From Escherichia coli (lineage in GTDB: Bacteria; Pseudomonadota; Gammaproteobacteria; Enterobacterales; Enterobacteriaceae), in assembly GCF_046105845.1 (NCBI RefSeq), contig NZ_CP151004.1: a stretch of 64,000 bases of DNA; one strand, written 5' to 3'. How positions within the stretch are numbered: position 1 is the stretch's first letter; every line of letters starts with the position of its first letter. Shown piece after piece: positions 53,787-56,884 of this stretch. The notes beneath the pieces are model-generated. The model saw only the letters and a program-made list of their open reading frames with translations. It had not been told where the DNA came from and searched no databases. Both the position numbers and the translations under genes were made by a program.

Positions 53787-55205
53787 ATGCATGTACAGCC
53801 CATTTCAACTTTCCGTTTGTTCCAGGAAGGTCATCTGCTACGTAATAGCATCGCTATTTTTGCGCTAACCACGCTGTTCTATTTTATTGGTGCAGAGTTA
53901 CGGCTGGTTCACGAACTTTCTCTTTTCTGGCCGCTGAATGGCGTAATGGCGGGGGTGTTTGCCCGCTATGTCTGGCTTAATCGACTGCATTACTATGCGA
54001 TCAGTTATGTGGCAATGCTGGTTTATGATGCCATAACCACCGAATGGGGGCTGGTTTCACTGGCTATCAATTTCTCCAATATGATGTTTATTGTTACCGT
54101 CGCCTTACTGGTCGCGCGGGATAAGCGTCTGGGGAAAAATAAGTACGAGCCAGTAAGTGCCTTACGGCTATTTAATTACTGTCTGATTGCCGCATTATTA
54201 TGCGCTATTGTCGGGGCGATTGGTTCGGTCAGTATTGATAGTCTGGATTTCTGGCCTTTGCTTGCCGACTGGTTCAGTGAGCAATTCTCAACGGGCGTGT
54301 TGATCGTGCCTTGTATGCTGACGTTGGCAATTCCTGGAGTGCTGCCGCGCTTTAAAGCAGAACAGATGATGCCCGCTATCGCGCTTATTGTGTCGGTTAT
54401 TGCCTCGGTAGTCATTGGCGGAGCGGGGAGTCTGGCGTTCCCGCTGCCTGCATTAATCTGGTGTGCAGTGCGCTATACGCCGCAGGTAACATGTCTGTTG
54501 ACCTTTGTCACCGGTGCGGTTGAAATCGTACTGGTGGCAAATTCGGTGATTGATATCTCGGTCGGTTCGCCGTTCTCCATTCCGCAAATGTTCTCCGCAC
54601 GTCTCGGTATTGCCACGATGGCGATATGCCCAATTATGGTTTCTTTTAGCGTGGCAGCGATCAATTCGCTAATGAAGCAAGTTGCGCTGCGAGCCGACTT
54701 TGATTTTCTGACTCAGGTTTACTCACGGTCCGGTCTTTATGAGGCGCTGAAAAGTCCATCGCTGAAACAGACACAACATCTGACTGTCATGCTGCTTGAT
54801 ATCGACTATTTCAAAAGCATTAACGATAACTATGGACATGAATGTGGCGATAAAGTGTTAAGCGTGTTTGCCCAGCATATTCAGAAGATTGTCGGTGATA
54901 AGGGGCTGGTGGCGCGAATGGGCGGCGAAGAATTTGCTGTTGCAGTGCCATCGGTGAATCCTGTCGATGGTCTGCTAATGGCGGAAAAAATCCGTAAAGG
55001 CGTTGAACTGCAACCGTTCACCTGGCAACAAAAAACGCTTTATCTCACGGTAAGTATTGGCGTCGGTAGTGGTTGCGCATCGTACCGAACGCTGACCGAT
55101 GACTTTAATAAATTGATGGTCGAAGCCGATACATGTCTGTATCGCTCGAAGAAAGATGGGCGCAACCGTACCAGCACTATGCGTTACGGTGAGGAAGTTG
55201 TCTGA
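53787..55205 (+). CDS. dgcF: Membrane-anchored diguanylate cyclase (GGDEF domain)
   Basis: 472-aa ORF with N-terminal multi-TM sensor region and C-terminal GGDEF domain (RMGGEEF). Start is uncertain; the protein I recall as YneF may be annotated shorter. Confidence 0.8.
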   Translation: MHVQPISTFRLFQEGHLLRNSIAIFALTTLFYFIGAELRLVHELSLFWPLNGVMAGVFARYVWLNRLHYYAISYVAMLVYDAITTEWGLVSLAINFSNMMFIVTVALLVARDKRLGKNKYEPVSALRLFNYCLIAALLCAIVGAIGSVSIDSLDFWPLLADWFSEQFSTGVLIVPCMLTLAIPGVLPRFKAEQMMPAIALIVSVIASVVIGGAGSLAFPLPALIWCAVRYTPQVTCLLTFVTGAVEIVLVANSVIDISVGSPFSIPQMFSARLGIATMAICPIMVSFSVAAINSLMKQVALRADFDFLTQVYSRSGLYEALKSPSLKQTQHLTVMLLDIDYFKSINDNYGHECGDKVLSVFAQHIQKIVGDKGLVARMGGEEFAVAVPSVNPVDGLLMAEKIRKGVELQPFTWQQKTLYLTVSIGVGSGCASYRTLTDDFNKLMVEADTCLYRSKKDGRNRTSTMRYGEEVV

Positions 55206-55432
55206 CATCTTTATTCATTCACAGCGATTTTAATGGAATGTGTTCTACCACTTTATTGAGCGAATAAAAGGCGTAGTTCCTCGATTAAACCATGATCCGC
55301 GCCACACTTTTCTCATAAAACTGCTCATTAATCATCAGGAGTTGATCAAAACAGGGGTTCGGCGTATTAAAGTTTGCTAACCTGTCGTACCAATTCAAAC
55401 AGGTTGTATGACTAATCAGAAGGGAACCCATT

Positions 55433-56884
55433 GTGAAAACACTAAATCGTCGCGATTTTCCCGGTGCACAGTATCCAGAACGTATCATTCAGTTTGGTGA
55501 AGGTAACTTCCTGCGCGCCTTTGTTGACTGGCAAATCGATCTCCTGAATGAGCACACCGATCTGAATTCTGGCGTGGTCGTTGTTCGTCCGATTGAAACT
55601 TCATTCCCACCGTCACTGAGCACACAGGATGGTCTGTACACCACCATTATCCGTGGCCTGAATGAGAAGGGTGAAGCGGTCAGCGATGCGCGTCTGATTC
55701 GCTCGGTTAATCGTGAAATCAGCGTCTACAGTGAATACGATGAATTCCTGAAACTGGCGCACAATCCGGAAATGCGCTTTGTTTTCTCTAACACCACCGA
55801 AGCGGGTATCAGCTACCATGCGGGCGATAAATTCGATGACGCGCCGGCGGTAAGTTATCCGGCAAAACTGACCCGTCTGCTGTTCGAACGTTTTAGCCAT
55901 TTCAACGGTGCGCTGGATAAAGGTTGGATCATCATCCCGTGTGAGTTGATCGACTACAATGGCGACGCGTTGCGTGAACTGGTTCTGCGCTATGCGCAAG
56001 AGTGGGCACTGCCAGAAGCATTTATTCAATGGCTGGATCAGGCTAACAGCTTCTGTTCTACGCTGGTGGACCGTATCGTTACCGGTTATCCGCGCGATGA
56101 AGTGGCTAAACTGGAAGAAGAACTGGGTTATCACGATGGTTTCCTCGACACCGCTGAACACTTTTACCTGTTTGTGATTCAGGGTCCGAAATCCTTAGCG
56201 ACTGAACTGCGTCTGGACAAATATCCGCTCAACGTGCTGATTGTTGACGATATTAAACCGTACAAAGAACGCAAAGTGGCAATCCTCAACGGTGCGCACA
56301 CCGCGCTGGTGCCAGTGGCGTTCCAGGCTGGGCTGGATACTGTAGGTGAAGCGATGAACGATGCTGAAATTTGTGCATTCGTTGAAAAAGCCATCTACGA
56401 AGAGATTATTCCGGTACTGGATTTGCCTCGTGATGAACTGGAATCTTTCGCCAGTGCAGTCACCGGACGTTTCCGTAACCCGTACATCAAGCATCAGCTG
56501 CTGTCTATCGCGCTCAACGGTATGACCAAGTTCCGCACACGCATCCTGCCGCAGCTGCTGGCAGGGCAGAAGGCAAACGGCACACTTCCGGCGCGCCTTA
56601 CTTTCGCATTAGCGGCATTGATTGCGTTTTATCGCGGTGAGCGTAACGGAGAAACATATCCGGTACAGGACGATGCACACTGGCTGGAACGTTATCAGCA
56701 ACTCTGGAGCCAGCATCGTGACCGTGTTATCGGCACCCAGGAACTGGTAGCGATTGTTTTGGCAGAAAAAGACCACTGGGAGCAGGACCTGACGCAAGTG
56801 CCTGGTCTGGTCGAGCAGGTTGCTAAGGACCTGGATGCGATTCTCGAAAAAGGAATGCGCGAAGCTGTACGTCCGTTGTGCTAA
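55433..56884 (+). CDS. uxaB: Altronate oxidoreductase (tagaturonate reductase)
   Basis: 483-aa ORF with GTG start ([36 protein letters not shown]...); matches UxaB. Confidence 0.92.

Follow-up and report, generated by a model that had tools for sequence, protein, structure and literature searches.

Two candidate ExuR-type boxes, rather than the N13 inverted repeat, delimit the operator at the uxaB promoter of Escherichia coli

Introduction

Immediately upstream of uxaB, the Escherichia coli gene for tagaturonate reductase, lies an eye-catching inverted repeat, AACCTGT-N13-ACAGGTT, and the locus raises the question of what this repeat is: an operator for the hexuronate repressors ExuR or UxuR, as a sequence-only reading had proposed, a structured element of the mRNA, or a coincidence of neighboring signals. 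The uxaB promoter was mapped decades ago, and we take classical genetics to place the gene under ExuR specifically. The hexuronate pathway, including the uxaB operon, answers to three regulators of local scope, namely UxuR, ExuR and UidR (PMC5934670), and glucuronate induces uxaB (PMC10016265). The published gSELEX and ChIP-exo papers that we examined report nothing on ExuR at uxaB.

We analyzed the repeat in its genomic context, a 64,000-nucleotide stretch of E. coli DNA (hereafter, the window), in which the gene order around the spacer of interest is sad-glsB-yneG-dgcF-uxaB-yneE. On the plus strand, uxaB (55433..56884; 483 aa) starts with a GTG codon, the G of which is position 55433, preceded by the Shine-Dalgarno sequence AAGGGAA (55420-55426). 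Upstream, on the same strand, lies dgcF (53787..55205; +), coding for a sensor diguanylate cyclase; it is full length here (472 aa), as against the 315-aa DgcF (948 nt) annotated in K-12. The dgcF-uxaB spacer thus delimited is 227 bp long (55206-55432). The locus is that of E. coli at large: among 5426 complete E. coli genomes, 5411 match the 501 bases surrounding the repeat. The start of the spacer (about 85 bp, 55206-55290) is hypervariable among strains, with the exception of two distal boxes considered below. A 248-base query across the spacer fell at 90-95% identity in 1440 of the 5411 matching E. coli records, and a 501-base query including the coding flanks placed just one record in that identity band.

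The N13 Inverted Repeat

The repeat is present precisely as the sequence-only reading described it, with arms at 55379-55385 and 55399-55405 that are complementary at 7/7 positions and 13 nt apart, and with its last base 28 nt before the G of the uxaB GTG (55433). The TACCAATT core, on which that reading based the likeness to ExuR/UxuR boxes, is likewise found, at 55388-55395. The repeat is present, but as a repeat it is at chance level. When the spacer was shuffled 5000 times with dinucleotides preserved, 21.8% of the copies contained one or more perfect 7-bp inverted repeats with a loop of 3-20 nt (14.7% when loops are limited to at most 13 nt), and in the window as a whole such perfect repeats with 3-20 nt loops occur at 0.53 per 227 bp.

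For comparison we assembled the uxaB loci of 80 Enterobacteriaceae species (84-99% protein identity) and aligned their upstream regions, from which a genus-level alignment of 46 uxaB promoters was derived. Six or more of the seven Watson-Crick pairs of the repeat are retained in just 7 of the 46 genera, and all seven pairs are present in E. coli, E. whittamii and C. amalonaticus. The left arm reads AAGTTAT in 28 genera, AACCTGT in 9, AACCTAT in 5 and AACTTAT in 3, and across the 46 genera we saw no change in the right arm that compensates for this variation; columns 38-39 of the alignment (A1), which belong to the right arm, also vary without compensation. The commonest form across genera, AAGTTAT...ATCAGGC, is complementary at 2-3 positions. 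In the 46 genus-level promoters taken together, 65.5% of the cells of the helix are paired against 65.3% in shuffled alignments (215 of 500 shuffles reach as high a value), with a single compensatory cell.

The Core Promoter of uxaB

The position of the repeat relative to the promoter is central to any account of its function. In K-12 the uxaB GTG lies at 1610680 in NC_000913.3, and we take the coordinate shift between U00096.2 and NC_000913.3 to be 1976 bp. With this shift, the validated uxaB transcription start (1608744 in U00096.2; PMC4447067 Table 1) falls 40 nt before the GTG, which is position 55393 of the window, the K-12 and window sequences being identical across the promoter stretch. 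For the -10 element, CTAACCT has been published, together with a poor -35, GGTTCGGCGT (PMC4447067 supplementary tables). In the window this -10 forms part of an extended -10 element, TGcTAACCT (55375..55383; +), the TG.TAA of which (55375-80) is identical in 46/46 genera, a conservation that fits an extended -10 promoter. The uxaB string in Table S3 of the same paper ends in GTGCGTA, where the genome has GTCGTAC (window 55370-55393). Since that string, when aligned on the -10, implies a start at about 55390, 7 nt past the -10 hexamer (55378-83), whereas the listed coordinate gives 55393, the start is uncertain by 3-4 nt, and we place it at 55390..55393 on the plus strand. A start at 55393 would lie 10 nt beyond the hexamer, a longer distance than usual.

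A rival promoter, formed by TTGATC (55342) and TATTAA (55365) at a spacing of 17, would set the repeat at +1. We rejected it in the face of the published -10 CTAACCT and the start at 55390-93; moreover, the TATTAA region is not conserved, whereas TG.TAA is invariant. A scan for consensus promoters and terminators returned no match at the uxaB promoter, as is to be expected given that its rule demands a T at position 6 of the TATAAT-like hexamer together with a -35 match, and this promoter is without a -35. Further upstream, a putative CRP site, CATGATCCGCGCCACA (55291..55306), agrees with the CRP core at 7/10 positions and is centered at -91.5 to -94.5; its counterpart in other Escherichia, TTTGATCAGCACCACA, is nearer the consensus.

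With the start at either 55390 or 55393, transcription begins within the repeat's loop (55386-98), and the left arm overlaps the -10; hence, the mRNA does not include the left arm. This bears directly on the notion of a hairpin in the 5' untranslated region of uxaB that controls mRNA stability or translation. The isolated 27-mer does fold, at -5.7 kcal/mol (z = -2.6), and two Escherichia variants carry an A to G change in the right arm that keeps a G-U pair. However, the z-score shrinks to -0.54 in a 63-nt context and is +1.04 for the true leader, the 46-sequence alignment offers no covariation, and Rfam gave no match. As the -10 element overlaps the left arm and the start lies within the loop, we regard an RNA hairpin as excluded for practical purposes, and a structured 5' untranslated RNA or riboswitch was discarded together with it, given the folding, covariation and Rfam results.

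Two 17-bp Dyads over the Promoter

The promoter is instead covered by two 17-bp dyads of the GntR/FadR type, both following the pattern AAnTTGT-N3-ACAAnTT. Box 1, AACCTGT-CGT-ACCAATT (55379..55395), extends from -14 to +3 and thereby covers the -10 element and the start; box 2, AGGTTGT-ATG-ACTAATC (55401..55417), extends from +9 to +25. Such a placement is the one to be expected of repressor sites. Each box displays a GT-N3-AC core (cTGT-CGT-ACCa in box 1 and TTGT-ATG-ACTA in box 2), a feature that the N13 repeat lacks, its GT and AC being 13 bp apart. The centers of the two boxes are separated by 22 bp, that is, two helical turns, so both boxes face the same side of the DNA.

The anatomy of the repeat follows from that of the boxes. 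Its left arm, AACCTGT (55379..55385), is the left half-site of box 1, overlapping the -10 hexamer TAACCT, and the true dyad partner of this arm is the ACCAATT 3 nt off. Its right arm, ACAGGTT (55399..55405), is composed of the two inter-box bases AC (55399-400) and AGGTT, the five bases that open box 2. The TACCAATT core between the arms is the invariant right half-site of box 1. The complementarity of AACCT and AGGTT exists only where the half-site of box 1 has CC at its variable positions 3-4, namely in Escherichia and Citrobacter, and the additional G-C and T-A pairs occur solely in Escherichia and C. amalonaticus. Hence the repeat is a by-product: the AACCT of box 1 happens to be complementary to the opening AGGTT of box 2. 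In Intestinirhabdus alba (L019, about 2440-2470) a 1-base deletion, which sets boxes 1 and 2 21 bp apart, has produced a perfect 10-bp inverted repeat, AACCTGTTGG-ACCAAT-CCAACAGGTT.

These observations speak to two further readings of the repeat. That it is itself a single ExuR/UxuR operator, with one dimer gripping both 7-bp arms, might be argued from the perfection of the arms, from the left arm being a plausible half-site and from the presence of TACCAATT between them. However, sites of the ExuR regulon at other promoters are GT-N3-AC and those of the UxuR type GT-N2-AC, never N13, and the chance-level occurrence, the arms without covariation and the 2-3 complementary positions in most genera make this reading very improbable. 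That, specifically in Escherichia, it forms a cruciform or is bound by an unknown dimeric factor might appeal to the 7/7 pairs kept in the three species named above and to the 10-bp extended version in Intestinirhabdus alba; against this, the repeat is at chance level, its arms are already accounted for by the -10 element, box 1 and box 2, and no independent signal was seen, leaving it a slimmer chance still.

Conservation, in contrast to the repeat, follows the candidate boxes. The alignment contains four near-invariant blocks: TTGATCAAAACAGGGTTTCA (55342-61), TG.TAA, ACCAAT (55389-94) and AGGTTGTATGACTAAT (55401-16), the second and third belonging to the extended -10 and to box 1. The ACCAAT of box 1 is identical in 46/46 genera. 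All four half-sites conform to the pattern A.TnGT with an invariant final T, and the N3 centers vary among the 46 genera; G occupies position 6 in three of the four half-sites, the left half of box 1 having A there in 36/46. Box 1 scores at least 9 bits in 75/80 species, its position being fixed at -54/-55 relative to the start codon, and box 2 does so at its own position in 50/80, and 125 of the 205 matches of at least 9 bits in the 513 kb from the 80 species sit exactly at these two positions. Box 2 is the most conserved block among 81 promoters, a degree of conservation that could be due in part to a function in the 5' untranslated region.

The Franconibacter/Siccibacter group (L065, L073, L076 and L078) has no box 1 (ACCAAT) upstream of uxaB. 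The extended -10 is kept there (L078 has TGATACGGT, the other three TGCTACGGT), and a variant of box 2, AGGTTGTCTGATAATAA, is retained; it scores 9.1 bits in L073 and is seen by eye, below 8 bits, in L065, L076 and L078. As these genera keep box 2 without box 1, box 2 may be the primary or ancestral operator. In a separate observation, the record titled Chryseobacterium sp. 18061 (L068) contains a uxaB of enterobacterial type (86% identity) along with the usual promoter boxes, and is probably mislabelled or contaminated.

Relationship to the ExuR Regulon and to Other FadR-Subfamily Sites

The closest relatives of the uxaB boxes are the sites at the exu locus. In K-12, the exuT (AAGTTGTATGACAAGTT), uxaC (AAGTTATCACACCAATT) and exuR (AAGTGGTATAACAAATA) promoter sites are 17-bp GT-N3-AC dyads like those at uxaB; the GTTGTATGAC of box 2 is identical to the exuT promoter site, and over 16 nt the uxaC site and box 1 of Enterobacter sp. 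kpr-6 (L027) are the same. In E. coli the left half of box 1 has diverged, with AACCTGT as against the AAGTTAT of most genera. A symmetrised ExuR-type matrix, built from these three exuT, uxaC and exuR sites, which were chosen by consensus similarity, ranks box 1 fifth (12.1 bits) and box 2 fourteenth (a modest 9.4 bits) among 63,984 window positions. Conversely, a matrix built only from the uxaB boxes recovers the exuT, exuR and uxaC sites, in this order, as its three best matches in the exu locus (5.5 kb). With at most two mismatches, the ExuR-type consensus has 8 matches in the window against 4.6 expected, three of them in the dgcF-uxaB spacer. What sets uxaB apart from the exuT, uxaC and exuR operators is the presence of two proximal boxes 22 bp apart, joined in Escherichia by two distal ones.

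In Kosakonia and relatives (L030, L033, L041, L057 and L059) there is a strong site of the ExuR type, TAGTTGTATAACAGGTT or TAGTTGTATAACAAGTT, about 90-150 nt past the uxaB stop codon (+1542 to +1602 relative to the uxaB start), which probably serves the next gene as its operator.

The boxes might nevertheless be bound mainly by another regulator of the FadR subfamily, such as UxuR, PdhR, DgoR or LgoR, rather than by ExuR. The TTGT/TGGT-N3-ACAA/ACCA core is common to DgoR and PdhR; deletion of uxuR activated uxaB (PMC10016265); and UxuR and ExuR reportedly bind each other's sites interchangeably (PMC11806353). Given such cross-binding, the sequence need not single out one bound protein, and UxuR may contribute at the uxaB boxes. 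The operators of UxuR, a paralogous repressor, at gntP-uxuA and uxuR have related half-sites (TTGGT/ACCAA), but they are even-spaced GT-N2-AC sites (TGGTCAACCA, TGGTTAACCA and TGGTTGACCA), as opposed to the GT-N3-AC of the uxaB boxes. An even-spaced UxuR-type matrix places box 1 147th in the window, with 2.7 bits, and box 2 is outside the six top-scoring positions upstream of uxaB; the UxuR half of the operator label in the sequence-only reading is consequently not borne out. We also tried the published even-spaced UxuR consensus AAATTGGTATACCAATTT (PMC8092373) and set it aside for these boxes, as it scored poorly and picked the ExuR-regulon sites in inconsistent registers.

The PdhR box, ATTGGT-N3-ACCAAT, has the same spacing as box 1 and an identical right half (ACCAAT), but its left half does not match. 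Box 1 differs from the PdhR consensus at 3 positions, which is chance level, with 35 such sites in the window against 34.65 expected, and we dropped this candidate; as a positive control, the consensus was found with 0 mismatches in the pdhR promoter itself (ATTGGTAAGACCAAT). With the reciprocal best matches of the uxaB boxes being the exuT, exuR and uxaC sites, we consider it unlikely that a regulator other than ExuR is the main occupant.

Thus, given the matches of the boxes to the exuT, uxaC and exuR sites and the invariant half of box 1, the sequence-only reading appears to have been right in substance about an ExuR operator region at uxaB, where a 17-bp box lies on the published -10 and start, and to have misdrawn the dyad: as delimited by these comparisons, the candidate operator is a pair of 17-bp N3 dyads and not an N13 palindrome.

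The KdgR-Type Block and the Distal Boxes

The first of the near-invariant blocks lies outside the candidate ExuR operator. It covers the -35 region (TTGATCAAAACAGGGGTTCG; 55342..55361), and its consensus across loci L003-L082, TTGATCAAAACAGGG(T/G)TTC, lies at roughly -95 to -80 relative to the uxaB start. A KdgR-type matrix made from the K-12 kdgK, kdgT and kduI boxes places 58 of its 64 strong matches in the 513 kb on this block. In most Enterobacteriaceae the block takes the form ATCAAAACAGGGTTTCAT (e.g., ATCAAAACAGGGTTTCATG), which resembles the KdgR box of kdgT, AATAAAACAGCGTTTCAAT. In E. coli its right half (GGTTCG) is degraded in comparison with KdgR boxes, with a score of 4.2 bits and rank 41, and the box is degenerate in Escherichia generally. 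This pattern suggests that KdgR co-controls uxaB in most Enterobacteriaceae and that this control has weakened in Escherichia. An FNR ChIP peak is reported at uxaB, with an identified FNR site that overlaps the CRP site (PMC3688515). As explanations of the 55342-61 block itself, the FNR and CRP consensus sequences were rejected: each agrees at just 6/10 positions, and a KdgR-type box fits better in other genera.

Escherichia has, in addition, two distal ExuR-type boxes. D1, AAGTTGTCTGACATCTT (55195..55211), overlaps the dgcF stop codon and is the top-ranking match in the window (18.5 bits); D2, AATGTGTTCTACCACTT (55237..55253), lies 42 bp from D1 and ranks third (12.5 bits), and it is the only one of the uxaB boxes to score under both the ExuR- and the UxuR-type models. 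D1 is conserved in four Escherichia lineages, and both boxes stand out as islands of conservation inside the otherwise diverged Escherichia spacer; in one locus (L074) the distal boxes, AAGTTATCTGACAAGTT and AATTTGTTCTACCAATT, are nearer the consensus. D1 and D2 were not found in most other genera, a D2-related site being present in the C. amalonaticus group. D1 and D2 may be auxiliary operators. We put forward, as a tentative scenario that we are inclined to doubt as it stands, a four-box ExuR architecture for Escherichia uxaB, in which the distal pair acts as an auxiliary module (e.g., in a repression loop) gained in the lineage whose ancestral KdgR-type box decayed.

Conclusions

Taken together, the comparisons make it probable that 55375-55417 is the core promoter of uxaB combined with its operator, the latter consisting of two candidate ExuR-type boxes through which ExuR would repress the gene. 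Briefly, we advance the following mechanism as the most likely one. RNA polymerase would use the extended -10 TGcTAACCT and start at about 55390-55393. Dimers of ExuR would occupy exactly these two boxes, in a putatively cooperative fashion, and the repressor on boxes 1 and 2 would block both the binding of polymerase and its escape from the promoter. Galacturonate or glucuronate would then release ExuR. This arrangement has a parallel in the E. coli dgo operator of DgoR, another GntR/FadR regulator: two close inverted repeats of the TTGT-N3-ACAA kind lie over the promoter, as do the uxaB boxes, with IR1 being AATTGTAGTACAACAAT and the published model having a sugar acid release two dimers (PMC11705089). 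The dgo system differs in its regulator and in its effector, D-galactonate.

The control of uxaB by ExuR is already known and is an ordinary case of textbook regulation. Accordingly, the significance of the present delimitation is small beyond correct annotation, in which the eye-catching repeat is explained by neighboring half-sites and the -10 element. The mildly new leads are confined to the distal ExuR-type boxes and the KdgR-type box that is degenerate in E. coli, which together offer a modest evolutionary lead on the rewiring of the sugar-acid regulon in enterobacteria. If the four-box scenario is true, uxaB would represent a lineage-specific rewiring in which dual control by KdgR and ExuR gave way to control by ExuR only.
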